Assembly: GCA_965213925.1 (NCBI GenBank)
Contig: OZ243927.1
Span: 2,656,001 to 2,720,000 of the forward strand
DNA length: 64,000 nt
Reading direction: 5' to 3'
From: Trueperaceae bacterium
GTDB taxonomy: Bacteria > Deinococcota > Deinococci > Deinococcales > Trueperaceae
The notes beneath the pieces were generated by a model. It was not told the DNA's origin and ran no database searches. It saw only the letters and a program-made list of their open reading frames with translations. Positions 18,061-55,167 of this stretch are shown here, one piece after another (the first letter of the stretch is position 1; every line of letters starts with the position of its first letter). Position numbers and translations under genes: made by a program.

Positions 18061-18092
18061 CAATGCAACAGACGCGCGCGTTCGTCGCAGAA
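18061..18092. repeat. 32-bp palindromic boundary site
   Basis: CAATGCAACAGAC GCGCGC GTTCGTCGCAGAA. Confidence 0.85.
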
Positions 18093-18227
18093 GCGCTGAA
18101 TCTGCTTCCACTTGTCTGTCAGCGTGTCTACAGTGTTCCCTTACGCCCCTCTGACATAGGCTTGCTAGGGTCACTTCAGCTACCGGTAGCTAGACTGACA
18201 CTCAATGACGCAGTGAGGAGAGGGTTT

Positions 18228-19859
18228 ATGCTACCTATAAAAGAGTTGTTATTCGCCAGCTTATTAGCGCTTACGGTTGGACAGGCACAAGAGACCGGAG
18301 GCGCTGAAACGGGCGGTGCCCAGGCATCAGGGCAGAGCGTTTCGGGCGTCGTCTACAACGATCTAAACGAGAACCGGCAGCGCGACGAAGGCGAAGCGGG
18401 GGTCGCAGGCGTGTCAGTCTCGAACGGGCTCGAGGTGGTGCAAACAGACGATAGCGGTCGCTATGAACTGTCCGCTCGTGACGAGATGATCATGTTCGTC
18501 ACCAAACCCGCTGGCTACATGGTCCCGGTGAACGAGGTGATGCTGCCGCAGTTCTACTACATCCACCAGCCTAACGGCACGCCCGAAGACTTAGACCTCG
18601 ACTTTGACGGCATCGAGCCGACAGGTCCGCTGCCTGACTCGGTAGACTTTCCGCTGCAAGCGTCCGAGCTGGATGAGTCGTTTGAGGCACTCGCCTTCGC
18701 CGACCCACAGCCCCGCGACGACACCGAACTCGACTACATCCGTGACGACGTAATTACGGAAATCGTTGGTACGGACGCCGCTTTCGGCATCACCGTCGGC
18801 GACATCATGTACGACGACCTGTCCCTGTTCGAGCGCTATAACGAAGTCGTTGCAGCGATCGGTATCCCCTTCTGGAACGTGCCGGGCAACCACGACCTGA
18901 ACTTCCAGTCCCCGGACGACGCTTACTCGCTCGAGACTTACAAGCGCATCTATGGACCCGCCTACTACTCGTTTGACTATGGGCAGGTGCACGTCGTGGT
19001 GATGGACAACGTCGAGTACTTCGGGGTGGAGGACGGCGAGTCGAGCGGCTACCGCGGCTACATCGGCGGAGCGCAGCTCTCTTGGCTCGAGAACGACCTG
19101 CGCTTCGTCCCGGAGGACAAGCTCATCGTCTTAGCCATGCACATCCCCCTGATCGACCAAGGGCGCGAAGACAGCGCCGGCGTCAACACCGCCGACCGCG
19201 AGGCGCTCTTCGAGGTCTTGGCGGGGCGCGAGCGGGTGCTCTCCATCTCGGGCCACGTCCACGCCAAGACCGAGCACAGTTACTTCGGCGAAGCAGACGG
19301 CTTTCAAGCGCCCAACCCGCTGCATCACATCACCCTGACGACCCTCTCGGGCGTCTGGTGGGGCGGGCCTGAGGACGAGCGCGGCATCCCCATCACCACC
19401 ACTCGTGACGGGCTGCCGAACGGTCATCACGTCCTCTCCTTTGAGGGCAACGCCTACCGCGAGCGGCTCAAGGGGGCGGGCGAAGCCGCCGACTATCAGA
19501 TGAACATCAGCGTCGCCCAGGCGCAGCAGGACGGCAACACCCTCGACCCCGCGCAGTGGTCCGGACCGCAAGTCGTCGCCAACGTCTTTAACGGCAGCGA
19601 GCTTTCCAGCGTCCGCTATCAGATCGACGGGAGCAAGATGCGGACGATGGAGCGCACCCTGCGCGGCGACCCCTACGTCAGCGAGCTGCAGGAGCGTTTC
19701 CCCGAGGAGATGCCCGGTCCTATCGACTCGTCGCACATCTGGACCGCACCCCTGCCGGACGACCTAGCGCCCGGCGTGCACCGGGTCCGCGTAGAAACGA
19801 CCGACCAGTACGCTCAGACCTTCCGGGCGACGCGCGTCTTCGAGGTCGCCGGGGAGTAG
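18228..19859 (+). CDS. Secreted calcineurin-like metallophosphoesterase
   Basis: Signal peptide, SdrD-like N-domain (SGVVYNDLNEN), ADPQ, GDIMYD, PGNHD, HIP, SGHVH. Confidence 0.88.
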   Translation: MLPIKELLFASLLALTVGQAQETGGAETGGAQASGQSVSGVVYNDLNENRQRDEGEAGVAGVSVSNGLEVVQTDDSGRYELSARDEMIMFVTKPAGYMVPVNEVMLPQFYYIHQPNGTPEDLDLDFDGIEPTGPLPDSVDFPLQASELDESFEALAFADPQPRDDTELDYIRDDVITEIVGTDAAFGITVGDIMYDDLSLFERYNEVVAAIGIPFWNVPGNHDLNFQSPDDAYSLETYKRIYGPAYYSFDYGQVHVVVMDNVEYFGVEDGESSGYRGYIGGAQLSWLENDLRFVPEDKLIVLAMHIPLIDQGREDSAGVNTADREALFEVLAGRERVLSISGHVHAKTEHSYFGEADGFQAPNPLHHITLTTLSGVWWGGPEDERGIPITTTRDGLPNGHHVLSFEGNAYRERLKGAGEAADYQMNISVAQAQQDGNTLDPAQWSGPQVVANVFNGSELSSVRYQIDGSKMRTMERTLRGDPYVSELQERFPEEMPGPIDSSHIWTAPLPDDLAPGVHRVRVETTDQYAQTFRATRVFEVAGE

Positions 19860-19891
19860 GGACAAACAGAGGCGTTCTGTCTGAATCAGGT

Positions 19892-19926
19892 GAACAGGAG
19901 CGGTCTACTATGAACCGCTCCTGTTC
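19892..19926 (+). terminator. 13-bp stem hairpin after the phosphoesterase gene
   Basis: GAACAGGAGCGGT-9 nt-ACCGCTCCTGTTC. Confidence 0.55.
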
Positions 19927-19976
19927 GCTCGGACTGAACATTTGTATAGAGGGGCACAGGAACGGAACCTATCTTT

Positions 19977-20008
19977 TTCTGCAACGAACGCGCGCGTTCG
20001 CCGCAGAA
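19977..20008. repeat. 32-bp palindromic boundary site
   Basis: TTCTGCAACGAAC GCGCGC GTTCGCCGCAGAA. Confidence 0.9.
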
Positions 20009-20076
20009 GCTAACTGGGCTTTCCTACTACAAAACCCAGCTTATCTCTCGACTAACGCGATGACTTTCGGTGGCGA

Positions 20077-21471: not shown

Positions 21472-21662
21472 AAATTTAGCTGTCCCGATGACGACCCAAG
21501 CTTCGGTCGTTACGGCGTGAACCGTTCGAGGGCGAGGGTACAAAGACTGGTGAGTGCGTCATCATGCGACCTCATCCCTAGCGTAGCCCAGCAGCGCCAC
21601 AAACCGCATGTGCTTAAAGTCATGCACTCTCTACTATCTTGACGTCTAGCTGCTTTGCGGCG

Positions 21663-21694
21663 TTGTGCAAAAGACGCGCGCGTTCGTCGCACAA
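21663..21694. repeat. 32-bp palindromic boundary site
   Basis: TTGTGCAAAAGAC GCGCGC GTTCGTCGCACAA. Confidence 0.9.
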
Positions 21695-21748
21695 AGTTTA
21701 AGCTTCAGAAGGCTTATGAAGTGACCTAAAAGTTCTAGGAAGTGGGCA

Positions 21749-22467: not shown

Positions 22468-22499
22468 CTGTGCGGCAGACGCGCGCAACTCTTGCACAA
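22468..22499. repeat. 32-bp palindromic boundary site
   Basis: CTGTGCGGCAGAC GCGCGC AACTCTTGCACAA. Confidence 0.88.
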
Positions 22500-22532
22500 A
22501 ACCAGAGCAACACGTCGTTATAAACTGCTTAC

Positions 22533-22985
22533 TCATTCCTTCGCCCGCTCAACAAGCGCTGCAATCCTCTCCTCGAAGCTGAAAGAGCCGAGCGGCTCGA
22601 CCTCGACTTGACGAAAGTCCGGATGGTCGGGGTTGAGAAGCACATTAAAGCTTTCAGGTGCGACCACTGAGGGAACGCGCAGAGCAACGCTTCTCGCTTC
22701 GCGCACCCAGGTGTCACCGTAGGACCGCGTCTGAACTCGGTCATTGATCCCGAGGTCGTCAGGCGCATTCTCGAGAAGAGTCTCATCGAAGGTACAGCGG
22801 TAAAGGTTATAACCCTGTAGGCTGGCGTAGACCTCCCAACCGGCTAGAATCTCTAGTGCAGCTAGAGCAGCGTGCTCCGCTGTATACACCATAACCGTGC
22901 CCTCGCTATTCCAACGCCCTGGTGCGCCGCGTGGTCTGAACGCCGCACTCAAACTGTTCGTAAAAGCTAAGCGGTAGACCTTCAA
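22533..22985 (-). CDS. RES-domain toxin (NAD+ phosphorylase family)
   Basis: VYR..GRWNSEG..VYTAEH..ALE..LRVPSVV..NVLLNPDHPDF. Confidence 0.92.
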   Translation of the reverse strand: MKVYRLAFTNSLSAAFRPRGAPGRWNSEGTVMVYTAEHAALAALEILAGWEVYASLQGYNLYRCTFDETLLENAPDDLGINDRVQTRSYGDTWVREARSVALRVPSVVAPESFNVLLNPDHPDFRQVEVEPLGSFSFEERIAALVERAKE

Positions 22986-23425
22986 AGAAAAGTGCCGTCC
23001 TCCAGCGCGGTAAGCATGTTTTGAAGCTTGCTGACCCCGACGCGCGTAGCCAGCAAGTCGATAGGTCTAGCTCCGTCTAGGGCAGCCTTAGGGCTCCCGA
23101 ACCAAGCTTTCGCCCCCTCCTGTCCGAGAATGCTCGCGACCCGTGCAAACAGGGTAAGCGCACTGTAGGTACGGTCTAAAAGCTCGACGCTCATATCTGG
23201 GTTCTTACTCTTGCGCGAGCGGCTGATGCCGAGCACAGCGAGTGCTTCGGTTTTGCTGATATCAAGCAGGGAAGTCAAACGTCTTAGAACCTGCTCGAGG
23301 GAGGACTCGCCAACGACAGTTTGCTTGAGCACGGCCTCAGCTACCTCGTTCGGCGTAGTGTCGAGTACCTGTTCAAACAGTGCCTCGCGGGTAGAAGCAA
23401 AGGAAGTCTGTATCACGTTCAACAT
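22982..23425 (-). CDS. Xre/MbcA/ParS-type antitoxin
   Basis: AKAWFGSPKAALDGARPIDLLATRVG..LEDG; overlaps RES start; start codon uncertain. Confidence 0.88.
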   Translation of the reverse strand: MLNVIQTSFASTREALFEQVLDTTPNEVAEAVLKQTVVGESSLEQVLRRLTSLLDISKTEALAVLGISRSRKSKNPDMSVELLDRTYSALTLFARVASILGQEGAKAWFGSPKAALDGARPIDLLATRVGVSKLQNMLTALEDGTFL

Positions 23426-23452
23426 AGTAGCATGAAACTTCAACGTTTAGCG

Positions 23453-23484
23453 CTCTGCAGGAGTTGCGCGCAACCGCCGCAGAA
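23453..23484. repeat. 32-bp palindromic boundary site
   Basis: CTCTGCAGGAGTT GCGCGC AACCGCCGCAGAA. Confidence 0.88.
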
Positions 23485-25104: not shown

Positions 25105-25136
25105 TTGTGCAACGAACGCGCGCGTTCGCCGCCTAA
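25105..25136. repeat. 32-bp palindromic boundary site
   Basis: TTGTGCAACGAAC GCGCGC GTTCGCCGCCTAA. Confidence 0.88.
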
Positions 25137-25313
25137 AACTTGGGTCACCCTCGGTCCGTAGTTCAACCTAAAACCTCTTGCCGAAATGGACGTCAAGGAG
25201 AGTTCGGAGGGCGGCGCAGATTATTTGCCGCGCGGAGAAAAGAAGCGGCGTCACAGGGTGTAAGCCCAAAGAACATAGGAGCATTCACAGCCTTGAACGC
25301 TTGCACTGTCGGT

Positions 25314-30037: not shown

Positions 30038-30069
30038 TTCTGTGCGAGTTGCGCGCGTTCGCTGCACAG
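30038..30069. repeat. 32-bp palindromic boundary site
   Basis: TTCTGTGCGAGTT GCGCGC GTTCGCTGCACAG. Confidence 0.88.
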
Positions 30070-30074
30070 CAGTG

Positions 30075-30503
30075 CTACGCGTTAGGCGGGTGCCAGCCCA
30101 CCTCAATCCAGAGCCGCCTCGCTTGCACCAGGGCCTCACGGTTGAGCGTTAAGGCTTCAACTGTTGCCCTGCCGCTCGCTGTCTTACCCGCAATATTCAG
30201 CCCTGTCTCCACCCACTCGAAGTGCTCACGCCATACTTGTTGGCGCGGATGATAGAGCGGGACGAGCTGAGCTGTGTTCGGGTCGGTCGCGGCGACCCGC
30301 TGCCCCTTAGCGAGGTTGCAGTCCCAGCAGGCGAGGCAGAGGTTCGCGGTATCGCTGCTGCCTCCGAGAACCTCTGGGATGATGTGATCCACCATAAAGC
30401 GCATCCCTGCTACCGCTTCCTGGGTTTGACAATAGGCGCAGCGGAAGTTGAAATGCGCCGCCACTTCGCGACGTAGAGCGAGGGATAGCTTGGTTTTCGA
30501 CAC
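30075..30503 (-). CDS. HNH endonuclease
   Basis: CAYCQ..DHIIP..GG..NLCLAC..CN..K, LYHPR..W..HF. Confidence 0.92.
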   Translation of the reverse strand: MSKTKLSLALRREVAAHFNFRCAYCQTQEAVAGMRFMVDHIIPEVLGGSSDTANLCLACWDCNLAKGQRVAATDPNTAQLVPLYHPRQQVWREHFEWVETGLNIAGKTASGRATVEALTLNREALVQARRLWIEVGWHPPNA

Positions 30504-30512
30504 CTATTGAGG

Positions 30513-30908
30513 TTAAGAAGAGGTGAGCAGGCTGTCGACCTCGTGCCCCCGGCGCTTAAGTAGCGCTGCCGCTTCAGCCCGCAAGCGCATCACCTGTTGG
30601 GCGTAGCGCTGTAAGCGCAGCGCTTCGGTAGCTTCCTCGGGCGTGAGACCTTCGCGCTGCCGCCGTTCGACGAGCGCCTGCATCCGTTCGCTCTGCTCGT
30701 CTGCGACACGCTGCTTGGCAACTTGCCACAGTTGAGCGTCGTCTAAAACAGTGAGTTGCTCGAGCTGAACGTCGTTGGGCGTCTCGACCGCGAGCGCTGC
30801 TTCGAGGAGGGCGCGCGCTTCCTCCTCCAAAGAGCGGGCATGGGCGGTTGCGCGCGCTTCTAAAGCAACTTGCGCGTCGGGCGAGAGTTGGAGTTCGAGG
30901 GCGTCCAC
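30513..30908 (-). CDS. Small helical protein, putative antitoxin partner of HNH
   Basis: N-terminal Arc/FitA-like segment (ALEARATAHARSLEEEARALL); 9 bp from HNH gene; TAAACT-N6-GTG start. Confidence 0.7.
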   Translation of the reverse strand: MDALELQLSPDAQVALEARATAHARSLEEEARALLEAALAVETPNDVQLEQLTVLDDAQLWQVAKQRVADEQSERMQALVERRQREGLTPEEATEALRLQRYAQQVMRLRAEAAALLKRRGHEVDSLLTSS

Positions 30909-30952
30909 AGCTCTAGTTTAGCACGGTGCAAATCTCAAAACTGGCATAAACC

Positions 30953-30984
30953 TTCTGCGCGAGTTGCGCGCGTCTCACGCACAA
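30953..30984. repeat. 32-bp palindromic boundary site
   Basis: TTCTGCGCGAGTT GCGCGC GTCTCACGCACAA. Confidence 0.9.
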
Positions 30985-34247: not shown

Positions 34248-34279
34248 TTCTGCAACTGACGCGCGCGACTGCCGCACAA
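34248..34279. repeat. 32-bp palindromic boundary site
   Basis: TTCTGCAACTGAC GCGCGC GACTGCCGCACAA. Confidence 0.9.
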
Positions 34280-36107: not shown

Positions 36108-36139
36108 TTCTGCTCCTAAAGCGCGCAACTCGCACCGAA
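36108..36139. repeat. 32-bp palindromic boundary site (diverged)
   Basis: TTCTGCTCCTAAA GCGCGC AACTCGCACCGAA. Confidence 0.75.
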
Positions 36140-36782: not shown

Positions 36783-36814
36783 ATCTGCAATTAACGCATG
36801 CGTCAGCTGCCAAA
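36783..36814. repeat. 32-bp boundary site with variant palindromic core
   Basis: ATCTGCAATTAAC GCATGC GTCAGCTGCCAAA. Confidence 0.75.
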
Positions 36815-37915: not shown

Positions 37916-37947
37916 TTGTGCGTGAGACGCGCGCGTTAGTTGCGCAA
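37916..37947. repeat. 32-bp palindromic boundary site
   Basis: TTGTGCGTGAGAC GCGCGC GTTAGTTGCGCAA. Confidence 0.9.
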
Positions 37948-39256: not shown

Positions 39257-41053
39257 TTGGCTACTTTAGACCGAGTTCTCGAGCAAAACGAAGAGGAGCA
39301 GGTGAGCGCGTTTAGCTACCCCAGGCCCCGATTCGTTCGCAACCTGTGGAGACCGCTAGACGGTGAATGGTCATTTTCAACGAGCCAGGTTCAAACGAGC
39401 GCTGAGGTGAGTTGGCAGGGGTCAATCAGGGTGCCTTATCCACCCGAGGCGGCGCTTTCAGGCGTGAACGACCAGACGTTTCACCCGGTGGTCTGGTACC
39501 GGCGCAGCTTTACGGTTCCCAATGACTGGCGCGATAAGCGGATCATCCTCCACTTCGGCGCGGTGGACTACAGCGCGCAGGTGTGGGTCAACGGTCAGCT
39601 CGTTATGAGCCACGAAGGGGGGCACACGCCCTTCTCCACCGACGTCACCGATGTGTTGAGGGAAGGTGAGCAAGAGGTCGTTGCGAGGGCTGAGGACGAC
39701 CCTTCGGAGATGAGCAAGCCGCGCGGCAAGCAGGACTGGCAGAGGGACCCTCACCGGATATGGTATACACGCACCACCGGCATCTGGCAGAGCGTGTGGC
39801 TCGAGCCCGTTACACCTGCCTACCTCTTAAGCGCCCGCTTCACCCCGGACCTGGCGAGCTACGCCGTACTGAGCGAGATCAGTGTAGTCGGGGACGCCTC
39901 AGATTTAAGCCTCGAGCTGGCCTTCAAGTTAGGCGATGAGCGACTCGCCGCCGACCGCTGGCAGCTCACCAGCAGCCATATCGCCCGTACAGTTCACTTA
40001 GGGGTCAGCGGCTTTGACGACCTGGAACGCTTTATCTGGAGCCCGGAACACCCTAACCTCATTGACATCACCCTCAAGCTCTACCAGGGGGAGACCCTGC
40101 TCGACGAGGTGAGGAGCTACACCGGTTTGCGCTCGGTTGAGGCGAGGGACGGCAAGTTCTTCCTTAACCACCGCCCCTACTTTTTGCGCCTGGCCCTCGA
40201 CCAGGGCTACTGGGATGAGGGTTTGCTGGCCGCGCCCAGCGGCGAAGCGCTCAAACGTGATGTCGAACTCGCCAAGGCGATGGGCTTTAACGGCGTGCGT
40301 AAGCACCAGAAGGTTGAGGACCCGCGCTACCTGTACTGGGCCGACAAACTGGGACTGCTCGTCTGGGAGGAGTTGCCGAGCGCCTACGCCTTCTCCCCTC
40401 GAGCGGTGCAGCGCCTGACGAGGGAGTGGCTCGAGGTGCTTGAGCGCGACGACAGCCACCCTTCGGTCGTCGCCTGGGTCTGCTTCAACGAGTCGTGGGG
40501 CGTGCCCGACTTGCCTCACTCGGCGGCGCAGCGTCACGCAGTGCAAGCGCTTTACCACCTAAGCAAAGCGCTCGACCCTCAGCGCCTGGTAGTAGGCAAC
40601 GACGGTTGGGAACACGTAGTCAGCGACCTCTTAACCGTGCACGACTACAGCCCGAAACCCGCTACCTTAGAGGAGCGTTACGGCGGCGCTGAGCGCAGCC
40701 GCCACACCAGCCGTCAAATCCTGGAGCACGGGCGAGCCGTGGTCTTGCCGGAGATGACTCAGAGCGACCAGCCCATCATCTTGTCTGAGTTTGGCGGTAT
40801 CCGCTACAACCCGGCTGCTGAAGGCTGGGGCTACCAGCAAGTGGAGAGTGACGAGGCGCTCCTCGAGCTCTACGCCGAGATGATCAGGTCCGTGTCAGGG
40901 ACAGGGCTAGCAGGTTTTTGCTACACCCAGTTCGCCGATACCTTTCAGGAGCAAAACGGCCTGCTTTATTCGGATCGCCGCCCTAAAGTAGCGCTGGAGC
41001 GCCTTTCTCAAGCCACCCGAAATCAGGCTGAAAGCCGAGAAGGGGGTGAATGA
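39257..41053 (+). CDS. GH2 glycoside hydrolase
   Basis: YPRP, LHFGAVDY, PRGKQ, LDQGYW, RKHQK, FNESWG, SEFGG, CYTQ; start uncertain. Confidence 0.92.
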   Translation: MATLDRVLEQNEEEQVSAFSYPRPRFVRNLWRPLDGEWSFSTSQVQTSAEVSWQGSIRVPYPPEAALSGVNDQTFHPVVWYRRSFTVPNDWRDKRIILHFGAVDYSAQVWVNGQLVMSHEGGHTPFSTDVTDVLREGEQEVVARAEDDPSEMSKPRGKQDWQRDPHRIWYTRTTGIWQSVWLEPVTPAYLLSARFTPDLASYAVLSEISVVGDASDLSLELAFKLGDERLAADRWQLTSSHIARTVHLGVSGFDDLERFIWSPEHPNLIDITLKLYQGETLLDEVRSYTGLRSVEARDGKFFLNHRPYFLRLALDQGYWDEGLLAAPSGEALKRDVELAKAMGFNGVRKHQKVEDPRYLYWADKLGLLVWEELPSAYAFSPRAVQRLTREWLEVLERDDSHPSVVAWVCFNESWGVPDLPHSAAQRHAVQALYHLSKALDPQRLVVGNDGWEHVVSDLLTVHDYSPKPATLEERYGGAERSRHTSRQILEHGRAVVLPEMTQSDQPIILSEFGGIRYNPAAEGWGYQQVESDEALLELYAEMIRSVSGTGLAGFCYTQFADTFQEQNGLLYSDRRPKVALERLSQATRNQAESREGGE

Positions 41054-41101
41054 GCTTCGCTTAGATGGGGTATTAAGATTTCGTTTATAGGAAAGCGGGG
41101 A

Positions 41102-42958
41102 ATGGGGAATATCGTGGGGATGTTAAACAAAAGTTTATTAGGCAAGAGTTTATTGGTAGGAATAGCGGCGCTTACGATGCTCGGTGGTTGCCAGCAGATT
41201 GCGGAGCCTACCGAAGTCACGACTCAGTGGGGCAAGGAAAGTCCAGGGAAGTTTGTCAATCCGCTCACGCTTAGTATAAGGAACGGCCAGTTAGCTGAGT
41301 CCTGCGCTGATCCAGTCATCCTGAAAGGACAAACCACAGGCGACCGCTACTGGTATTTATACTGCACGACCGACCCACTGAACGCCGACGACCGAGCGGA
41401 GAACGGTGACCTCAACTTCAACCTCATCCCTACCTTCCGCTCACTCGACCTGGTCAATTGGGAGTACCAGGGAAACGCTTTTGCAGAGCGGCCTGAATGG
41501 GTCGAGGGCAGCGCGGGCATCTGGGCTCCTGAGGTCGTCTATTTCAACAATCAGTATTACCTCTACTACATGGCCCCAGAGACGAAGGCTGGGGGGAGCG
41601 CCATCGGAGTGGCGACAAGCGACAGCCCGACCGGGCCGTGGACAGATTCGGGCGGCCCGGTTGTTGCGCCGCGAAAAGATCCCAATAGTGACGGGTTTTT
41701 CTGGACGTATGACGCTGAGGTGATCGAAGCTCAGGGCAAGCACTACCTCTACTACGGTTCATACTACGGCGGGGTGTTTGTCCGTGAACTTTCGGAAAAT
41801 GGGCTTACGAGCCGCCCGGAGACCGAGACCCAAATTACGATCGCCAATCGCTACGAAGGCGCGCAGATCATTGAGCGTGACGGCTACTATTACCTGCTCG
41901 CGTCGGCAACGAACTGCTGCAACGGTCCGCTGACCGGTTACAGCGTGTTCGCTGGGCGTTCGCGCAGCCCGCTTGGTCCTTTTATCGACAAGGAAGGCGT
42001 ATCGCTTTTAGCCGGACGTGTCGGCGGAACGCCGGTCATCAGCATGAACGGCAACCGCTGGATGGGCACTGGGCACAATGACACCCTCACCGACTTTAGT
42101 GGACAGGACTGGCTCGTCTACCACGCCATCGACCGCTTTGACCCATACTTTGAGGGTGAGGTCGGCTTTACGAAGCGTCCGGTACTTATGGACCCACTCG
42201 AGTGGGTGGACGGCTGGCCGAGCGTGCGGGCGGGGCGCTGGGCCTCGGACAAGAAACAGCCCGCCCCCGCTGCGCAACCGGGGCAGAAGTCAAAGGTCAA
42301 GGTGCGCCCGCTCCGAGATGAGCGCGTCGGCAAGCGCCTGTTGCGAGACAGCTTTAACGGCGATGCCTTGAACAACGCTTGGACGTGGGTACGCGAACCT
42401 GCAGCCGAGGGCTACAAGGTTGCAAACGGCGCTTTTATCTTCGAGACGCAAGCTGCTGACCTCTTTAGAGATAGCAACAACGCGTCGGTGCTGACCCGCG
42501 CCTTGCCCCGTGGCGACCTTGTGATCCAAACCCGTGTCAAGCTCGATGTACCACCCGAAGGGTGCTGTCAAAATTTTGTCCAGGCCGGGCTGGTCGTCTA
42601 CGACGACGACGACAACTTCATCAAACTCGCGCACGCTTCTATTTTTGAAACGCGTCAGACCGAGTTTGCCAAGGAGCTTTCGCCGGTTCCAGACGGGTTC
42701 CCAAGTTACGGCAATACGGTTGTCGGTCCGCCGGGCGAATGGACGGATTTGCGTATCGTTCGGCGCGTGGAGCGTAGTGGAGAGGTTTACACACCCTATA
42801 CCCGCCGTGACGGGGGCGAGTGGATTCGGGGCGGCACTTATACGCATACGCTCGGCCAGGATACGCGTTTGGGACTCGTCTCGATGGGGGGCGAGGGCTT
42901 TACCGCCACCTTTGATGATGTGCGCGTCTCGAGGCTCAAGAAAGGAAAAAAGCATTGA
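41102..42958 (+). CDS. GH43 glycoside hydrolase lipoprotein with C-terminal beta-sandwich
   Basis: Lipobox LGGC, ADP, WAPE, YEGA, GHN. Confidence 0.9.
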   Translation: MGNIVGMLNKSLLGKSLLVGIAALTMLGGCQQIAEPTEVTTQWGKESPGKFVNPLTLSIRNGQLAESCADPVILKGQTTGDRYWYLYCTTDPLNADDRAENGDLNFNLIPTFRSLDLVNWEYQGNAFAERPEWVEGSAGIWAPEVVYFNNQYYLYYMAPETKAGGSAIGVATSDSPTGPWTDSGGPVVAPRKDPNSDGFFWTYDAEVIEAQGKHYLYYGSYYGGVFVRELSENGLTSRPETETQITIANRYEGAQIIERDGYYYLLASATNCCNGPLTGYSVFAGRSRSPLGPFIDKEGVSLLAGRVGGTPVISMNGNRWMGTGHNDTLTDFSGQDWLVYHAIDRFDPYFEGEVGFTKRPVLMDPLEWVDGWPSVRAGRWASDKKQPAPAAQPGQKSKVKVRPLRDERVGKRLLRDSFNGDALNNAWTWVREPAAEGYKVANGAFIFETQAADLFRDSNNASVLTRALPRGDLVIQTRVKLDVPPEGCCQNFVQAGLVVYDDDDNFIKLAHASIFETRQTEFAKELSPVPDGFPSYGNTVVGPPGEWTDLRIVRRVERSGEVYTPYTRRDGGEWIRGGTYTHTLGQDTRLGLVSMGGEGFTATFDDVRVSRLKKGKKH

Positions 42959-43035
42959 CGACAGGCACCAAACTCACCAGCCAAACAAGTTACGAGTAAC
43001 GACCTTTAGTTCAATCCATGTTTTAAGGAGGAACG

Positions 43036-44325
43036 ATGCACCTCATATTCAAACGATTACAATTTGTTTTTGCCACCCTTTTTTTAGGTAGCTTCGCCCT
43101 AGCACAAGTGACCTGCTCAGAGGAGGCGCAGGGAGCGCAGATCGCCTTTTGGAACGGTTTTAGCGGCCCCGATGGTCAGTTTATGCAACAGCTCGTAGAC
43201 CGTTTCAACAGTGAAAACGAACAGGGTGTTACGGTCACTATGACCGTGCAACCCTTTACCGAGTATTACAACACGCTCAACGCGGCAGCTACCTCGAATA
43301 CGCTGCCTGATGTGGTGCAAATTCACCTCGATCAGCTTGCGACCAACGCGGTGCGCGGCGTAATCCGACCTATCTCGGAAGACATATTGGCGACTATGAG
43401 TATCGACGGCTCGGACTTTCCCGCGACGGTCTGGGAGGGTACCTCTTATAATGGCGAGCGCTACTCCATCCCGCTCGACGTTCACCCCTTGGTGATGTGG
43501 TACAACCGCGAGCAGTGGAGCGCGGCGGGCGTAGCGGACCCAGCGGGACAGGTTTTAGAGGGAGAGGCCTACGAAGCGGCGCTCCAAGCCCTCAAGGAGA
43601 GTAATGGTGAGGCCATCGCTTGGTCGATTACCACCGGCTTTCCTATCGAGTGGATGTTTCAAACGCTCCTTTATCAGTTTGGCGGAAGCGCCTTTAACGA
43701 GGACGCGAGCGAAGCAACCTGGAATAGCGAAGCGGGCGTCCAGGCGCTGACCTACCTCAAGGAACATCAAGCGCAGTTCTCGAGGCCCAATTTGCCCGTC
43801 GACGCGGGCATCACCGCCTTCAAGCAGGGTAACGACTCAACCGAGTGGAACGGCACCTGGCAGGTCAGCAACTTAACGGGTGAAGGCTACCAACCCGGTT
43901 GGGGCGCGCCTATTCCAAATATCGGCGGCGACTACGCAGTATTCGGCAACGCGCACACGCTGGCGCTGGCCGACCATGACGGAAATGAAGATGCGGCAAA
44001 AACCGCCGCCGCCGCTTGCTTGATCGACTTTATCTCCGCGAATTCGCTCGTCTGGGTGGAGGGCGCAGGACACATCCCAGCCCGCAACTCGGTCCGCGAA
44101 AGTAATGACTTTGCCGCCGTTGAACCCCAAGCCTCCTACGCGGTCATGGCTGAAGATGTAGTTTTCCCACCGCTCGTCCCCGGTATCACCGACGCCTTAG
44201 CTGAACTCACCGAAGCGGTGGCCGATGTCTTAGCGGGCAATGGTGACATCGAAGGCGCGCTCAACGAGTCCGCGGCTCGCGCCAATCAGGTGTTAGAGCA
44301 AAACCGCCGCCGTTACGCCCAGTAG
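43036..44325 (+). CDS. Sugar ABC transporter substrate-binding protein
   Basis: Signal peptide, FWNGFSGPDG, YSIPLDVHPL. Confidence 0.9.
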   Translation: MHLIFKRLQFVFATLFLGSFALAQVTCSEEAQGAQIAFWNGFSGPDGQFMQQLVDRFNSENEQGVTVTMTVQPFTEYYNTLNAAATSNTLPDVVQIHLDQLATNAVRGVIRPISEDILATMSIDGSDFPATVWEGTSYNGERYSIPLDVHPLVMWYNREQWSAAGVADPAGQVLEGEAYEAALQALKESNGEAIAWSITTGFPIEWMFQTLLYQFGGSAFNEDASEATWNSEAGVQALTYLKEHQAQFSRPNLPVDAGITAFKQGNDSTEWNGTWQVSNLTGEGYQPGWGAPIPNIGGDYAVFGNAHTLALADHDGNEDAAKTAAAACLIDFISANSLVWVEGAGHIPARNSVRESNDFAAVEPQASYAVMAEDVVFPPLVPGITDALAELTEAVADVLAGNGDIEGALNESAARANQVLEQNRRRYAQ

Positions 44326-44433
44326 TTAAGCTCAGTCGTTTCGTCCGGTCGTCACGCCTATCTGCGCGGGGTCGGGTTTTCATCTTCCCCGCGCAACCTT
44401 ATAAGCCTTGTGAAGGAAAGTTAGGTAGAATCT

Positions 44434-45375
44434 ATGGCTACACAGCAGTCCGTTCAAAGCCGCGCTGCGGCGAGCCGCTCGCCCAGTAAGCGCAAGCGCT
44501 TCAAGGTCACGCCTTACCTCTTCATTTTGCCGCACCTCGTTTTTTTTGCTGTATTTTTGGCGTGGCCTCTTTTCTACGGTATTTACATCAGCCTCTTCGA
44601 GTACGACTTTTCTTTTCCTGACTATCGGCCTTTCGTCGGCCTACAAAACTACCGAAATCTGTTCGAAAGCTCGAGCATTCAATATGACGACTTTTGGAAC
44701 GCTCTCACCAATACTGGGGTCTTCGTCCTTTGGAGTTTGCCCCCCCTAGTCATCGTGGCGCTCTTTTTAGCGGTTCTCTTAAACGGTAAGTACCGGGGGC
44801 GCAACTTTTTCCGCGGCATCTACTTTGCCCCGTGGTCGCTCTCCGCCGTGGTCGCTTCGCTCCTCGGCTGGTGGATTTTCCAAGACCAGAGCGGACTGAT
44901 GAACGCCTTTTTAGCGCAGCTTGGGCTGCCTGAAGTCGCTTGGCTCGGCTCGTTGCCGTGGGCGTGGATTGCCATTACCGTCGTCACCGTCTGGTGGACG
45001 GTGGGCTTTAACGCCATCATCTTTTTAGCGGCCCTGCAAGACATCCCCGACACCTACTACGACGCCGCTGCAATTGACGGCGCAAATAAGCTGCAGCGGT
45101 TCTGGCATGTCACCTTGCCGCAGCTTAGACCTGTGCTTATCTTTGTCATTACCATTACCCTTATAGCCTCGGCTAACTTGTTCGCCCAGCCCTTTATTAT
45201 GACGCGCGGAGGTCCGGCGCAGGGCACCGAACCGATCATCATGCTGATCTATAACGAAGGTTTTGGCGCTTTTCGGATGGGCAGCGCCGCCGCGATGTCC
45301 GTGGTTCTTGCAGCAATTCTGCTCGTTTTGACGGTGCTTAACTTCAGGGTTTTTGGCAGCGGAGAGGGACGTTAA
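44434..45375 (+). CDS. Sugar ABC permease
   Basis: FVGLQNY, YDAAAIDGA. Confidence 0.92.
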   Translation: MATQQSVQSRAAASRSPSKRKRFKVTPYLFILPHLVFFAVFLAWPLFYGIYISLFEYDFSFPDYRPFVGLQNYRNLFESSSIQYDDFWNALTNTGVFVLWSLPPLVIVALFLAVLLNGKYRGRNFFRGIYFAPWSLSAVVASLLGWWIFQDQSGLMNAFLAQLGLPEVAWLGSLPWAWIAITVVTVWWTVGFNAIIFLAALQDIPDTYYDAAAIDGANKLQRFWHVTLPQLRPVLIFVITITLIASANLFAQPFIMTRGGPAQGTEPIIMLIYNEGFGAFRMGSAAAMSVVLAAILLVLTVLNFRVFGSGEGR

Positions 45376-45377
45376 AG

Positions 45378-46241
45378 ATGGCGCAAACAAGCGGACGTGT
45401 TGAGAGTCAGCGAGCAGGTCGAGGGTTACTTGGCAAGGTGCTGCTCTACACCGTACTCATCTTTTTCGCCTTTTTTTTCCTCTTGCCGCTTCTATGGATG
45501 GGGGTGACTGCGCTTAAACCCGCCGGCGAATGGCTGCTCCCCAATTGGATTCCGCAGCGACCCACCTTGGAGAACTTCACCGCTATCTTTAGTAACCCTT
45601 CGCTGCCGGTATTGCGCTGGTTTATCAATAGCGCTGCGGTAGCAACCGTCTTCACCGCTTTGGTCTTATTGCTCGATTCGCTCGCAGCTTACGCTTATGC
45701 CCGGATGGACTTTCCGGGTCGCAACATCCTCTTTGGCCTGCTCATTAGCACACTGGTTATGCCTGCCATCATCTTCTTAATTCCCAACTACCTTACGGTC
45801 GCTACCTTGGGTGGACTCAACAGCTACTGGGGTATTTTCGCGCCAGGGCTGGCCGGGGTTTTCGGCGTGTTTTTCCTGAGACAGTTCTTCTTGAGCTTGC
45901 CTAAGGAGTTAGAGGAGGCCGCACTCATTGACGGGGCCGGTATCTGGACCATCTTTTTTAGGATCGTATTACCGCTCTCAGTTCCGGCCCTCTCAACGCT
46001 AGGCATCATCACCTACCTCGCCTCTTGGAACGACTTTCTCTGGCCCCTGCTTATCGTCGGCAACGACCCGCTCAAGCAGACGCTGCCGGTCGGACTGGCG
46101 AAGCTCCAAGGTGCCTATGTATTTCAATACGGGCAACTCATGGCAGGCGCGGTCATTGCGGCGCTGCCGGTGCTCATTCTCTACTTGACCCTGCAACGCT
46201 ATATCGTGCAGAGCGTAGCGTCAACTGGGCTCAAGGGTTGA
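45378..46241 (+). CDS. Sugar ABC permease
   Basis: EEAALIDGA, WNDFLWPL, TLPVGL. Confidence 0.92.
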   Translation: MAQTSGRVESQRAGRGLLGKVLLYTVLIFFAFFFLLPLLWMGVTALKPAGEWLLPNWIPQRPTLENFTAIFSNPSLPVLRWFINSAAVATVFTALVLLLDSLAAYAYARMDFPGRNILFGLLISTLVMPAIIFLIPNYLTVATLGGLNSYWGIFAPGLAGVFGVFFLRQFFLSLPKELEEAALIDGAGIWTIFFRIVLPLSVPALSTLGIITYLASWNDFLWPLLIVGNDPLKQTLPVGLAKLQGAYVFQYGQLMAGAVIAALPVLILYLTLQRYIVQSVASTGLKG

Positions 46242-46386
46242 GGGAGAGGTGCACAAAGCGGACGTTACATGAATGTCGCTGCTGCCCAGTTCTTCTCACA
46301 TGAACTTATCCGAGTTGCCTATGTCCATCTTTACGACTCTGTGAAACTAAGGCACCGCTACATGCTGCGACCCTGAAAGGAAACCT

Positions 46387-47382
46387 GTGCGCACGTTTTG
46401 CCTCGTCCTTATTAGCTTACTCATAACCCAGGCTACAGCCCAATACGTCAACCCCGTTGTTACGCCCGTTGCCGCTGACCCCAGTATCATCCGCACTCCA
46501 GATGGCACCTTTTACCTTTACGCTACTCAGGACGACTGGGGCGAGGGGAGTCACTACATCCCCATCTTTCGTTCAGACGACCTTGTAGAGTGGACGTTTG
46601 TCAAGGACGCTTTTACTTGGCCGCCTAGCTGGAAAGAGGGGGGCGGCTTTCTCTGGGCTCCCGATATTTCACGGCGCGGCGATACCTACTACCTTTACTA
46701 CGCCGCCTCCCTCTGGGGCGACCCGAACCCCTGCATCGGTCTCGCCACGGCGAGCCACCCCGAAGGTCCGTGGGAAGACCTAGGTCGTGCTGTATTTTGC
46801 TCCGAGGATATCGGCGTTGGCAACTCTATCGACCCCTTCGTGATGTACGAGAACAGCGAAAGGTGGATAGTTTGGGGGAGCTTTCAGGGTATTTACGCCG
46901 TAGAGCTGAGCCAAAACGGGACAGAAGCTGTGGGCGACCCCGTTCTTCTCGCGGACACCCGCTTTGAGGCTCCCTACATCATTCAGCGTGACGGTTACTA
47001 CTACCTCTTTCTCTCGGCAGGTTCGTGTTGTGAAGGGGAGTGGAGTACCTACCAGACGCTCGTGGGACGCTCGGCTAACCTGCTTGGACCTTACTTGGAC
47101 GCTGACGGGCGTGACTTGCGCTCGGGCGGCGGGACGCTCATTTTAGACCGCAATGACACGTGGATTGGACCTGGTCACAACGCCGTCATTCAAGACGACG
47201 CGGGGGACGATTGGATCATCTATCACGCGATTCCAAAAGCAGACTCGAGGCTTGCGAATGGGGTCAACCGCCGCCCCACGCTCCTCGACCGCATCATATG
47301 GGTGAACGGCTGGCCGGTCGTCAATAATGGTGACGGCGCGAGCGCTGCGGCAAAAGCCGCGCCGAAAGTGACGACCCCATGA
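46387..47382 (+). CDS. GH43 glycoside hydrolase, exported
   Basis: ADPS, WAPD, SIDP, FEAP, GPGHN. Confidence 0.9.
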   Translation: MRTFCLVLISLLITQATAQYVNPVVTPVAADPSIIRTPDGTFYLYATQDDWGEGSHYIPIFRSDDLVEWTFVKDAFTWPPSWKEGGGFLWAPDISRRGDTYYLYYAASLWGDPNPCIGLATASHPEGPWEDLGRAVFCSEDIGVGNSIDPFVMYENSERWIVWGSFQGIYAVELSQNGTEAVGDPVLLADTRFEAPYIIQRDGYYYLFLSAGSCCEGEWSTYQTLVGRSANLLGPYLDADGRDLRSGGGTLILDRNDTWIGPGHNAVIQDDAGDDWIIYHAIPKADSRLANGVNRRPTLLDRIIWVNGWPVVNNGDGASAAAKAAPKVTTP

Positions 47383-48323
47383 GCCGAGCAACACGCTCCG
47401 CCCAGGTGCAGCAGCTTAGCGACATGAACCCAGTCTACGCCGGCTACCTCGCTGACCCCTTTGTACTTGCTTACCAAGGTCAGTATTATGCGTACGGTAC
47501 GGACTCCGTTTTGGACGGTCGGGTGTTCCAGGTGCTTCAGTCTCCCGACCTTATCCGCTGGACCTCTTTAGGCACAGCTTTGAAGACACTGGAGGGCGAG
47601 CCATGCGATTACTGGGCTCCTGAAGTCGCATTGAATGGTGACACCTTTTATATGTACTATTCGGTTGGCAAGGGCGATAAAGGTCATATGCTCCGCGTCG
47701 CCACCGCGAAAGCGCCGCAGGGTCCCTTCACTGACTTAGGCTTGTGCCTCACGGCAGATGAGCCTTTCGCCATCGACCCTCACCCTTTCCAGGACGACGA
47801 CGGGGCGTGGTATCTATTTTATGCGAAAGACTTTTTGGAGGGCGAGCGGGTTGGGACCGGTTTAGTGGTAGACCGTTTGGAGGGGATGACCCGCCTTGTG
47901 GGAGAGACGCGCACCGTACTGCGGGCTACCGCTGACTGGCAACTCTATAAGCGGCAGCGAAAGATGTACGGACGCACGCTGGACTGGTACACGCTTGAGG
48001 GTCCTTTTGTAGTCAAGCGTTTCGGGCGCTACTACTGCTTCTTTTCGGGCGGCAACTGGCAGAACGAAAGCTACGGCGTCTCGTACGCTGTAGCGCCGCA
48101 CCCTCTTGGTCCTTGGCGTGAGCCACATCCTGAAAGCCCTGCGCTTTTGAAGTCTGTAGAGGACGCGCTCATTGGTCCCGGACACAACTCGCTTATTGTG
48201 GGACCAGGAGATGAAGACCGCCTTGTATTTCACGCCTGGAATAGAATGCGAACTGCTCGGCAGATGTGGATCGGGCGGCTTCACTGGATGGGTGAAGAGC
48301 CAAAGCTTATTCATAGTTTATAG
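47379..48323 (+). CDS. GH43 glycoside hydrolase, cytoplasmic
   Basis: ADPF, WAPE, AIDP, TLEGP, GPGHN. Confidence 0.9.
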   Translation: MSRATRSAQVQQLSDMNPVYAGYLADPFVLAYQGQYYAYGTDSVLDGRVFQVLQSPDLIRWTSLGTALKTLEGEPCDYWAPEVALNGDTFYMYYSVGKGDKGHMLRVATAKAPQGPFTDLGLCLTADEPFAIDPHPFQDDDGAWYLFYAKDFLEGERVGTGLVVDRLEGMTRLVGETRTVLRATADWQLYKRQRKMYGRTLDWYTLEGPFVVKRFGRYYCFFSGGNWQNESYGVSYAVAPHPLGPWREPHPESPALLKSVEDALIGPGHNSLIVGPGDEDRLVFHAWNRMRTARQMWIGRLHWMGEEPKLIHSL

Positions 48324-48336
48324 GCCTTTGTAGATT

Positions 48337-48368
48337 TTGTGCAATTAACGCGCGCAACTGGCGCACAA
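48337..48368. repeat. 32-bp palindromic boundary site
   Basis: TTGTGCAATTAAC GCGCGC AACTGGCGCACAA. Confidence 0.9.
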
Positions 48369-48487: not shown

Positions 48488-48495
48488 TTTGGCAT

Positions 48496-51819: not shown

Positions 51820-51909
51820 TCCGGACTTGCTTGTATCTGATTGACGCCCGGTAAGCACCTGACTTCTAGTATTCAGGACGTGACGAAAGACATTGAGAGA
51901 GGACTGTAC

Positions 51910-52866: not shown

Positions 52867-52877
52867 CGGGAGCAGCC

Positions 52878-53291
52878 TCAGTCATCACGGCGAAGCGCCT
52901 CACTGAGCTCGAGTCTATTCACTTTCAGCTCGTCGTCACTCGCCCTCGAAACGGTCCCCTCCAGCATCTTCTTTGAGGTGAGGTCGTGGTAGTCGTGCAT
53001 CGGGATCAGGTGTAGGTGGGCGTGGGGGATGTCCATGCCCGCGACGAGCATGCCGACTTTGAGGGGTTTGAAGACGCGCCGCTGTGCTTTAGCGATTCGC
53101 TTCGCCAGCCGCGTTATGTCGAGGTGGACGTCGTCGCCTAGGTCGAAGAAGTCCGGCTCATGCTCCTTAGGGATGACGAGAACGTGACCCGGGCGGATCG
53201 GGCTGACGTCCGAGAAGGCGACCGAGTACGCGCCGACGGCTAAAAGTTCTTCGGGCTCGTTAACTAACTGGCAAAAGGGACAAGGTTTCAT
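52878..53291 (-). CDS. HIT family protein
   Basis: CPFC, GHVLVIPK, HAHLHLIP. Confidence 0.92.
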   Translation of the reverse strand: MKPCPFCQLVNEPEELLAVGAYSVAFSDVSPIRPGHVLVIPKEHEPDFFDLGDDVHLDITRLAKRIAKAQRRVFKPLKVGMLVAGMDIPHAHLHLIPMHDYHDLTSKKMLEGTVSRASDDELKVNRLELSEALRRDD

Positions 53292-53607
53292 GGACTTCGC
53301 CTGACCACCGTCATACCGCAACCTATGGGGTAGCTTCCTGAGAGTATTTGTAGTTGCCGCACCTTGTAAAAGTAGCGTGAGTAGATGAGCATCCCTATTG
53401 ATTACTCAAGAAATGATGCTCTTTTGCTTAATATGCTTGGAGCGATCTCGCTGTGCAAGTCTTTAGACTCTACTACTTTATGTCGCTGCGTCGCTACGGT
53501 ATTACTTTGTCTAAAGAGAGGCAGCCTAGTTGTTTGAGTCATGCACGCAGCGCCCCTGTAACAAAATGTTGGGTAGTGCGGCGAACCGAGCCTATCGTGG
53601 CATAACT

Positions 53608-53637
53608 TTTGTGGAGTGACGCGTGTCTCTCGCAGAA
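53608..53637. repeat. Degenerate boundary site (4-nt core)
   Basis: TTTGTGGAGTGAC GCGT GTCTCTCGCAGAA; right arm identical to that of the 12973 site. Confidence 0.7.
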
Positions 53638-53720
53638 GACTAAGAAAAGCGGCGAGCCTTCGGAGCTGTAGGCATGTCGAGCGCGTTGCCGCCTTGCCAG
53701 AAGGGTGTAATACTCGGCGT

Positions 53721-55028
53721 ATGCTCACGGATGAGATCACTTTCGCCCCCGCCGCCACCCTCGCTAGGGCGATAAGGCTTAAAGACCTCTCCTCCGTAGA
53801 GGTGGTCGAGGTCTACCTCAAGCGAACCGAGGTGGTGAACCCTAGCCTCAACGCCGTCGTGCAGCTCGCCGCGGAAGCCGCCCTGAGCGACGCGCGGCTG
53901 GCCGACGAAGCCCTCGCGCGAGGAGATACGACCGGCCCTTTGCACGGCGTCCCTTTCACCGTTAAAGACTGGCTCGAGACGAAGGGAGTGGTATGCACCG
54001 CGGGCGAAGAGAGGCACCGAAGGTACGTTCCGAAGCATGACGCCACCGCCGTGGCGCGGCTGCGCGAGGCCGGCGGCATCTTCCTCGGCAAGACCAACAT
54101 TACCGTCAACAACCCCGTCTACGGGCGCACCAATAACCCCTACAACCTGGCGTACACGCCAGCGGGTAGCAGCAGCGGCGAGGCGGCTATCATCGCGGCG
54201 GGCGGCTCACCTTTGGGGTTGGGCAGCGACTCGGGCGGGAGCATCCGCCAGCCCGCTCACAACTGCGGCATCGCCGGGTTCAAGCCGAGCACGGGCAGGG
54301 TCCCCCTCACAGGGCACCTGCCGCGCATCAACCCCATGAGCGACCCCCGCACGACGATTGGACCGATGGCGCGCTACGTAGAAGACCTGGCGCTCGCGCT
54401 GCCCGTCATCAGCGGCGTGGACTGGCAGGACGCCAGCGTCGTTCCCGTGCCGCTCGGCCACTGGCAGGACGTCGGGGTAGAGCGCCTGCGCGTGGCCTTC
54501 TACACGAGACACGAGCACGCCGAGCCGACCCCGGAGACGGACGAGGTGGTGAGAAGGGCGGCGCGAGCCCTCGCCCGGCTCGAGGTCGAGGAGGCGCGGC
54601 CCGAGCGGGTCGAGGAAGCGTACGCGATCACCCGCGCCTATTGGCAGCGGCCCGAGTCGGAATCGTGGGACGCGTGGGCGCCCGACGGTGAGGCGAAGCT
54701 GAGCGGCGAGGAGGTCGAGCGACACCTGTTCGAGTGGGACCGGTTCCGGCGCAGCCTTATCCGCTTCATGGCGCACTACGACGTCATCTTGACGCCTGTC
54801 GCCGAAAAACCTGCCGTGCCCCATGGCGAGTCGGAAGGCGGCATCCCCTACACACTGCCCTACAGCCTCACGGGCTACCCCTGCGCGGTGGTGCGCGGCG
54901 GCAGCTCGCCCGAGGGGCTGCCGATCGGGGTGCAGGTCGTGGCGAGGCCGTGGCGCGATGACGTGGCGCTCGCGGTCGCGCACTATCTCGAGCAGGCTCT
55001 GGGGGGATACCGAAAGCCTGCGATCTAG
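53721..55028 (+). CDS. Amidase-signature family enzyme
   Basis: GPLHGVPFTVKD, GSSSGE, GSDSGGSIR, GLPIGVQ. Confidence 0.92.
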   Translation: MLTDEITFAPAATLARAIRLKDLSSVEVVEVYLKRTEVVNPSLNAVVQLAAEAALSDARLADEALARGDTTGPLHGVPFTVKDWLETKGVVCTAGEERHRRYVPKHDATAVARLREAGGIFLGKTNITVNNPVYGRTNNPYNLAYTPAGSSSGEAAIIAAGGSPLGLGSDSGGSIRQPAHNCGIAGFKPSTGRVPLTGHLPRINPMSDPRTTIGPMARYVEDLALALPVISGVDWQDASVVPVPLGHWQDVGVERLRVAFYTRHEHAEPTPETDEVVRRAARALARLEVEEARPERVEEAYAITRAYWQRPESESWDAWAPDGEAKLSGEEVERHLFEWDRFRRSLIRFMAHYDVILTPVAEKPAVPHGESEGGIPYTLPYSLTGYPCAVVRGGSSPEGLPIGVQVVARPWRDDVALAVAHYLEQALGGYRKPAI

Positions 55029-55135
55029 AGGCGCGCTTGTTACGCCCACGCCCTGGGCTATCGGTCTTGTCATCACTTTACTTACCTACGTACCAGGACG
55101 ATTGCGCGCCTGACCGGGTCGTCGCTGCTTAAGCG

Positions 55136-55167
55136 GTGTGCGAGAGACGCGCGCGTCTCTCGCATTG
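55136..55167. repeat. 32-bp palindromic boundary site (perfect 26-bp palindrome)
   Basis: GTGTGCGAGAGAC GCGCGC GTCTCTCGCATTG. Confidence 0.9.

Follow-up and report, generated by a model that had tools for sequence, protein, structure and literature searches.

The stretch of DNA analysed here, called the window, covers 64,000 nucleotides (C1:2656001-2720000) of the 4.75-Mb genome of a Trueperaceae bacterium, and its subject is a 32-bp inverted-repeat site that recurs along the window and borders modules of accessory genes. We find that these modules have been joined anew at the site, in changed order and in either orientation, within and between species. The site is probably a simple double-stranded target of a tyrosine recombinase, with two 13-bp inverted arms flanking a 6-bp strand-exchange core, and the candidate enzyme is itself borne on a module. 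Coordinates below are window positions unless they are prefixed C1, C2 or L.

Sites were scored with a position weight matrix (PWM) trained on seed matches, at cut-offs of >20 and >14, with shuffled and reversed versions of C1 as controls. The whole genome holds 87 sites above 20 and 94 above 14, compared to 0 and 1-2, respectively, in the controls. They are laid out as 13-6-13, that is, a 13-bp arm, a 6-bp core and an inverted 13-bp arm, and the core is GCGCGC in nearly all of them. When any core was allowed, 69 arm pairs of C1 were found 6 bp apart, and no other spacing gave more than 5 pairs. Arm sequences differ from each other at about 40% of positions; next to the core they end either in RAC (type A) or in GTT (type B). 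The sites are gathered in about seven clusters plus a few singletons, are mainly intergenic (3 of 87 fall within a long open reading frame, ORF), and the modules have a median length of 2.1 kb.

A first-pass annotation of the window had proposed that each site is a hybrid arising from exchange at the core, and had argued this from arms that match across modules. The proposal is supported, but by the breakpoints of homology and not by the arm matches. In all 62 pairs of homologous half-sites, drawn from the genome itself and from the arrays of relatives, homology ended at the site and the DNA beyond was unrelated. The near arm of these pairs matched on average at 10.8 of 13 positions, and the far arm at 7.7, which is the background level. 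When the flanks were at least 95% identical, 32 of 36 pairs shared at most 4 bases past the core.

The position of the crossover was deduced from duplicated modules. A copy of the HNH/FitA module (30038-30953), inverted and 100% identical, was detected with blastn 2.47 Mb away, at C1:211309-212224. At the 30038 end the copy shares the entire site plus 2 bases and then diverges, and at the 30953 end the duplicate stops at the core. The zinc-dehydrogenase module recurs at C1:2898714-2899847 (99.7% identity) with the same variant core, GCATGC, and a different outer arm; the DUF421 module has an 82% copy at C1:3412847-3413507, and another module, of 844 bp, is present twice elsewhere in the genome. 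The phosphoesterase, RES-Xre and dehydrogenase modules were also found in one or the other of two related genomes, G001 and G002, at 95, 98 and 92% identity, with different neighbours. The phosphoesterase module of G001 keeps the inner arm of site 18061 at 13/13 and differs in the outer arm and the neighbour; site 22468 has an identical inner arm and an unrelated outer side in G002; and the left half of site 55136 recurs in G001 and G002, its right half in G001, with different partners each time. Orientation is equally free, adjacent single-direction modules of Trueperaceae being in the same orientation in 17 cases and in opposite orientation in 18. We concluded that an arm stays with its module end in inheritance, that each site is the join of two ends, and that neither the class nor the sequence of an arm constrains its partner.

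A minority of junctions lie away from the core. Four of the 36 high-identity pairs share 10-15 bases past it; one of them is accounted for by a group II intron in the arm, and without it 3 of 35 remain, where 0.5 would be expected (p=0.015); the HNH module contributes one of the three, at its 30038 end. The inner 7 arm positions differ at 10.7%, compared to 1.4% in the flanks, and in four cases the flank and the outer TGC of the arm were kept and the inner 5-7 bases replaced, with a switch of class in two. This suggests that exchange is now and then resolved or repaired at the conserved TGC. In about 1 in 10 junctions the change lies 7-13 bp out, at this TGC, probably through migration of the junction or repair before resolution, and such off-core resolution would leave mosaic arms and possibly switch the class of a module end.

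These shifted junctions are also what microhomology events might produce, and hence bear on the idea that no site-specific enzyme is involved and that the repeats are short homology anchors for illegitimate recombination, RecA-independent or driven by transformation. We hold this to be very unlikely: despite arms that differ so widely, the great majority of recent junctions (the 32 of 36) are at the 6-bp core, and the fixed 6-bp spacing (69 pairs against at most 5) is the geometry of a protein-binding site. A back-joint seen at the dehydrogenase module was considered as a sign of a circle or an inversion, and was set aside, as a strain variant with another neighbour explains it equally well.

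Arm classes, arm matching and folding

The division of arms into two classes, made in the first-pass annotation, is real as linked variation next to the core, arm positions 12 and 13 being strongly linked (mutual-information z=31.5), but the classes are not clean: GAT, GTA and GTC intermediates occur, and no rule of pairing or orientation was found. The core-proximal triplets of the 174 arms are AAC (58), GAC (53), GTT (37), GAT (14), GTA (5), GTC (3) and others (4). The 87 sites comprise 49 AA, 31 hybrid and 7 BB, compared to about 48, 33 and 6 expected from the arm frequencies, so that the classes combine independently within sites. Using simple longest-ORF gene calls, no link was detected between arm class and the 5′ or 3′ end of genes (p=0.89). 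The arm classes behave unlike XerC and XerD arms.

The individual arm matches on which the annotation relied are all present. The inner arms match at 12/13 in the phosphoesterase module, at 10/13 in the RES-Xre module (both arms of GTT type) and at 11/13 at the sugar locus; those of the amidase module, one of which belongs to the degenerate 4-bp-core site at 53608, share 10 contiguous bases and 11/13 overall. The right arm of site 30953 does equal the left arm of site 37916 at 13/13, and the probability of one such identical pair among 30 arms by chance is 0.88. Hybrid sites were likewise confirmed at 22468, 30038, 30953 and 48337.

What permutation tests did not bear out is that arms match across modules beyond chance. 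In the genome itself inner-arm identity was 7.70/13, compared to 7.63 after permutation (66 modules of up to 7 kb, p=0.39), a result unchanged with module cut-offs of 5 and 12 kb and equally null in four position slices. Other Trueperaceae loci gave 7.84 against 7.82 (97 sites, 73 modules, p=0.49), the pooled set 7.77 against 7.73 (139 modules), and the window 7.25 against 7.61 (16 modules, p=0.83). Across-module identity was no better than random, the outcome that the annotation had itself named as telling against its claim. Within the window, 3 of 16 modules reach at least 11/13 against 1.05 expected (p=0.075; 0.056 over the span that the annotation covered); elsewhere there was no such surplus, with 13 modules against 11.8 expected in the pooled set and 5 against 6.0 in other genomes. 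Three high-matching modules where about one is expected explain the impression of a pattern, and 19% of random arm pairs reach at least 10/13. Across-module matching is chance; since arms travel with module ends, there is no need for them to match across a module.

The same data speak to the form in which the annotation had cast its idea, with matched terminal arms acting as transposon-like inverted ends or as the C and D modules of a two-protein system. Four window modules do match at 10-12/13, three of them at 11 or more (p about 0.06-0.07), and the phosphoesterase module keeps its 12/13 in G001. Against this, no excess was seen in 66, 73 or 139 modules, inner arms are of the same class at a rate of 0.59 compared to 0.60-0.61 under the null, the RES-Xre match falls to 7/13 in G002, and a two-protein rule predicts mainly hybrid sites where 49 of 87 are A/A. 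We find this explanation hardly credible.

Two secondary signals were discarded. Outer-arm identity (p=0.03-0.07 in the genome itself) was not reproduced in other genomes, and an anti-correlation of class between successive left arms (p=0.002-0.009 in the genome itself, one among many tests) was not replicated there either. Outer arms were of the same class with a pooled p of 0.012, a value driven by the genome itself.

The site could also be an RNA or single-stranded DNA hairpin (REP-like, terminator or attC-like), as its palindromic consensus and mostly intergenic position (3 of 87 in a long ORF) might suggest. The annotation had held that hairpin pairing is not the conserved feature, and rightly, as pairing and folding are both at background. 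Arm identity within sites was 7.56 compared to 7.63 in the genome itself (p=0.65) and 7.98 compared to 7.82 in other genomes (p=0.17), and pairing at each position was near expectation, with no position clearly above it. Predicted RNA folding gave -11.4 kcal/mol for real sites and -11.1 for arm-shuffled chimeras (p=0.16), and DNA folding gave p=0.17. An Rfam search returned a group II intron domain as its sole match, and one arm of a site is inherited without the other. A hairpin is therefore highly improbable. The null result on arm matching matters only as a negative: it rules out two-protein alternation and hairpin-type sites.

Candidate recombinase and related sites in Bacillus relatives

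The genome encodes 10 tyrosine recombinases, two of which, L001 (C1:883816-884679, 288 aa) and L002 (C1:3232342-3233202), lie in site-bounded modules with toxin-antitoxin (TA)-like genes. They are 89% identical, and the closest relatives of the recombinase are from Trueperaceae. Simple Xer-like tyrosine recombinases have the catalytic set R-K-H-R-H-Y. By its motifs L001 has this set: TGCR, GKGNK, HVLRH, LGH and TQLY begin at residues 133, 159, 235, 259 and 267, and PF00589 matches with 135.6 bits. The nearest structures of L001 and L002 are archaeal XerA and XerD, and the alignment with XerD (1a0p) spans the catalytic domain with only short gaps. The three recombinases scanned against NCBIfam (L001, L002 and L003) all fall below the XerC, XerD and XerS cut-offs, and the integron integrase model TIGR02249 gave 112 bits for a cut-off of 265; L001 and L002 reach the cut-off of no named NCBIfam model.

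Of 61 genomes of the order, 4 have both site and enzyme, and the other 57 have neither. At all five Trueperaceae loci with a homologue, sites lie no more than about 2 kb from the gene. In all five (L011-L015) a conserved hairpin-like inverted repeat was also noticed about 60 bases upstream of the recombinase match; it may regulate translation of the gene.

Related sites are found in Bacillota. A matrix seeded on two palindromes upstream of Bacillaceae homologues, and trained on the loci that it scanned, detected 76 sites in 14 of 47 loci, compared to 1 in reversed DNA and 2 at loci of more distant homologues; three plasmid loci held out from training gave 11 sites against 0 in the control. The arm consensus sequences of Bacillaceae and Trueperaceae overlap at the four outermost and the two innermost positions. 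Most Bacillaceae cores are asymmetric and rich in C, and of the 68 sites that could be oriented, 66 point the same way as most sites of their locus (12 loci with at least 3 sites, of which L033 and L035 are near-copies). In the Cytobacillus order, the site was found in 107 of 151 genomes (521 matches, compared to 1 in the control) and the enzyme in 28, each of which also carries the site (p=4e-5, kin not being independent). Site number averages 8.9 in genomes with the enzyme and 2.2 in those without (p=1e-6). In a quick tree of 76 rows (L040, L055, L085 and L087 among those left out), the Trueperaceae enzymes (support 100) grouped with an Alicyclobacillus-type clade (92), and then with the site-bearing Bacillaceae clade (84). 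Among Bacillaceae loci, a single case was found of a module end in common with the junction changed (L035 and L054), and shuffling there is therefore deduced mainly from architecture.

Several features of the Bacillus sites stand apart. In Gottfriedia, four sites (L085:3938, 8370, 8829 and 9508) have the palindromic core GCATGC among polar cores. Tandem double sites 45-64 bp apart occur at L035:5453-5531, L054:2114-2192, L054:7196-7286, L055:6974-7062 and L085:9463-9539, and are possibly empty modules. The Bacillus site could be among the repeats bcr1-bcr18 catalogued for the Bacillus cereus group (Kristoffersen 2011, as cited in PMC3184786).

We propose that one Xer-like enzyme of the L001 type, borne on a site-bounded module, would bind all four arms as a homotetramer. 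It would cut at the edges of the core, and modules would be excised, inverted or inserted by a Holliday-junction route, as with Cre and TnpI. Because GCGCGC is palindromic, any two sites could pair whichever way they face. With TnpI, deletion and inversion both occur when the spacer is symmetric (PMC2847244). The arm classes would be tolerated variants of one binding sequence rather than targets of two proteins.

A number of observations weigh against this proposal. The half-site pairs are not all independent, some coming in triplets, and the off-core class is a small sample, of 3 far-arm runs in 35 and 4 inner-arm replacements. In contigs from two sets of one sample no clean joint at the core was found, the joints near sites having short sides or unknown middles. 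No tyrosine recombinase was found among the 55 window ORFs scanned. The 4 genomes in which site and enzyme co-occur come from 2 genera and are not independent, and the co-occurrence is therefore only suggestive. The nearest homologues outside Trueperaceae (Alicyclobacillus and Sulfobacillus, 52-61%) have sparse sites, 8 compared to 1 in the control over 228 kb, and loci of the Paenibacillus-type clade gave none; plain repeat finding and gapped-dyad counts at Alicyclobacillus-type and Paenibacillus-type loci also returned nothing. Finally, 79 of the 107 site-bearing Bacillales genomes have no enzyme match at E<=1e-70, which calls for orphan arrays or a different enzyme in those genomes.

These 79 genomes would also fit an explanation in which the recombination sites are real but are served by a different tyrosine recombinase encoded by the host, as pdif sites are by XerC/XerD, the module-borne gene being cargo. 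Eight other tyrosine recombinases are indeed available in the genome, and modules of this type also carry TA pairs and other genes as cargo. This we consider unlikely, given that the 57 other genomes searched have neither site nor enzyme, that the three scanned recombinases are below the Xer cut-offs, that a related arm consensus goes with homologues of the enzyme in two phyla, and that enzyme-bearing Bacillales have more sites (8.9 against 2.2, p=1e-6).

Sites and cargo of the window, and variant elements

Fifteen sites of the window have the 13-6-13 layout, all from the PWM scan, and two more have 4-bp cores; between them lie hydrolases, TA pairs, an HNH gene, a dehydrogenase, a sugar operon and an amidase. 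The first in the array (12973..13004, A/A, core GCGCGC, PWM score 40) is outside the span of the first-pass annotation. The phosphoesterase module has an A/A site as its left border (18061..18092) and carries a calcineurin-like phosphoesterase ORF (18063..19859, + strand; PF16370, PF16371), which is the longest ORF, its actual start being probably downstream. An A/A site at 19977..20008, where G001 has a different junction, is followed by the A/A site that closes the alpha/beta-hydrolase module (21663..21694, PWM and domain scans). The RES-Xre module starts at the hybrid A/B site 22468..22499, and its cargo is an Xre-type antitoxin and RES-domain toxin pair (22533..23443, - strand; PF09722, PF08808), with a B/B site next to it at 23453..23484.

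Further along, an A/A site at 25105..25136 is accompanied by a degenerate second dyad, described below. The 915-bp HNH/FitA module has a hybrid B/A site as its left border (30038..30069) and contains a FitA-like ribbon-helix-helix gene and an HNH endonuclease gene (30075..30908, - strand; PF22513, PF01844); a second hybrid B/A site is at 30953..30984. The site at 34248..34279 combines an A arm with a GTC variant, and that at 36108..36139, a border of the DUF421 module, has a degenerate left arm and a B-type right arm. The left border of the zinc-dehydrogenase module (36783..36814, core GCATGC) has a PWM score of 17. An A/A site follows at 37916..37947, with a different junction in G002. The 10.4-kb module beyond has as cargo a sugar-utilisation operon with GH2, three GH43 and an ABC transporter (39257..48323, + strand, domain scan), and a hybrid A/B site is at 48337..48368. 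The left border of the amidase module is a degenerate site with a 4-bp core (53608..53637). An A/A site lies at 55136..55167, and a second Xre-RES module is closed by a site with the 4-bp core GCGC (56120..56149, identified by spacing and domain scans). Xre-RES pairs were seen on at least three separate modules, at 22533-23443 and 55213-56105 in the window and at L002:468-1399, beside the recombinase. PADLOC, run on 12 cargo proteins, gave only generic HNH matches and one weak match.

Variant cores were recorded at C1:241179, 242636, 244719, 859541 and 2468159, and in the window at 36783, 53608 and 56120. They include GCACGC and GCGTGC on the two ends of one stretch, GCATGC, and cores of 7 and 4 bp. 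Such cores may fix modules in place or limit their partners. On the 128-kb contig C2 there is a single site, with core GGCCCG (C2:106868), and contig C6 has two standard sites, its sequence comprising 92% variants of two chromosomal modules, adjacent to each other. The scan found no sites on the small contigs C3-C5, and none of C2-C6 has overlapping ends.

Some sites have additional motifs in their flanks. The second dyad of site 25105 lies at 25140-25171, 35 bp to the right; genome-wide, a second dyad 35 bp from the main core accompanies 14 of 174 half-sites and has an asymmetric, CGGGCC-like core resembling the polar cores of Bacillota. A further one is upstream of site 53608. The second dyad is possibly an accessory or ancestral site. 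In 23 of 380 half-sites of this and related genomes, another motif was found, in which the arm is followed by TGG-N-N-C-R-T and an arm-like direct repeat 28 bp past the arm start (for example on the right side of C1:2896384); it is possibly a second kind of accessory site.

The arms are also occupied by other elements. Group II introns are inserted 2 arm bases beyond the core at 14202-16103, C1:3432715 and C1:3477503, and the remainder of the split arm resumes after the 3′ end of the intron, for example at about 16103. The intron encoding a reverse transcriptase has three more copies at 99% in the genome. An insertion sequence (IS)-like element of about 1.3 kb (C1:3228876-3230211), with a transposase-like gene in two frames and further copies, starts exactly at the outer edge of an arm, which recalls the reported targeting of pdif sites by IS elements (PMC10132070).

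Relation to known systems

The open literature searched, which leaves most subscription papers outside its scope, contained no description of the site or of the enzyme. On balance we lean towards an undescribed, integron-independent shuffling system in which one small, module-borne tyrosine recombinase would act on 13-6-13 sites, widely across Bacillales with polar cores and co-oriented arrays, and in one Trueperaceae lineage with a palindromic core and free inversion. Palindromic and polar cores would then be a natural test of the effect of spacer symmetry on genome architecture. A site present in 107 of 151 sampled Bacillales genomes could account for the assembly of accessory islands in a heavily studied group, and it is short and can be scored. 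A recombinase so tolerant of arm sequence could also serve as an engineering tool.

In Cre/loxP and Flp/FRT, one enzyme binds 13-bp inverted arms and the symmetry of the spacer sets the outcome, as proposed here. These systems differ in having an asymmetric 8-bp spacer and one or two sites per replicon, and in serving replicon resolution or amplification and not gene arrays.

TnpI/IRS of Tn4430 is close in design. It consists of a simple Bacillus tyrosine recombinase and two inverted motifs cut 6 bp apart; symmetric spacers lose directionality, and adjacent accessory motifs exist (PMC2847244). The IRS is one resolution site in a Tn3-family transposon, with an IR1-IR2 core and DR1-DR2 accessory repeats. 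The present sites are, in contrast, counted in dozens within cargo arrays, and no Tn3 transposase was found among the 55 window ORFs scanned. Among the 82 plasmid rows listed, no record was named TnpI.

With integrons (see PMC8138268), the system shares exchangeable accessory arrays, a tyrosine recombinase and many arrays without a nearby enzyme (CALINs). Unlike in integrons, no hairpin-dependent site, no IntI insertion domain and no attI platform were seen, modules of Trueperaceae are multi-gene, up to 10 kb long and in either orientation, and the enzyme gene is on an ordinary module. An integron was accordingly rejected as a candidate on the TIGR02249 score below cut-off, the lack of attC-like folding and the random orientation of modules.

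The nearest likeness in behaviour is with the dif modules (pdif) of Acinetobacter, where accessory modules (TA pairs, an alcohol dehydrogenase and others) lie between two-arm sites with a 6-bp spacer (PMC13141974, PMC12907356). The present sites have the same two arms and 6-bp spacer. In both cases each arm goes with its module, modules become shuffled, inverted or deleted, and multi-module islands occur in chromosomes; varied order and orientation with rejoining at the site are found here (62 of 62 pairs; 17 against 18). Unlike in dif modules as described there, Trueperaceae arms are 13 bp long and interchangeable, one palindromic core is shared, and a candidate enzyme is on a module. Distinct XerC and XerD arms, with alternating C and D modules, are not what the sites have (49 AA, 31 hybrid, 7 BB). 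The system works like Acinetobacter dif modules, yet it fails their two-arm polarity and alternation. Gene-cassette arrays with a known enzyme are essentially those of integrons and of Acinetobacter dif modules, and what we find points to a third arrangement, for which a candidate enzyme can be named. If this is true, it would be a single-enzyme counterpart of the dif modules of Acinetobacter, and many islands of accessory genes in relatives of Bacillus would be explained by it.

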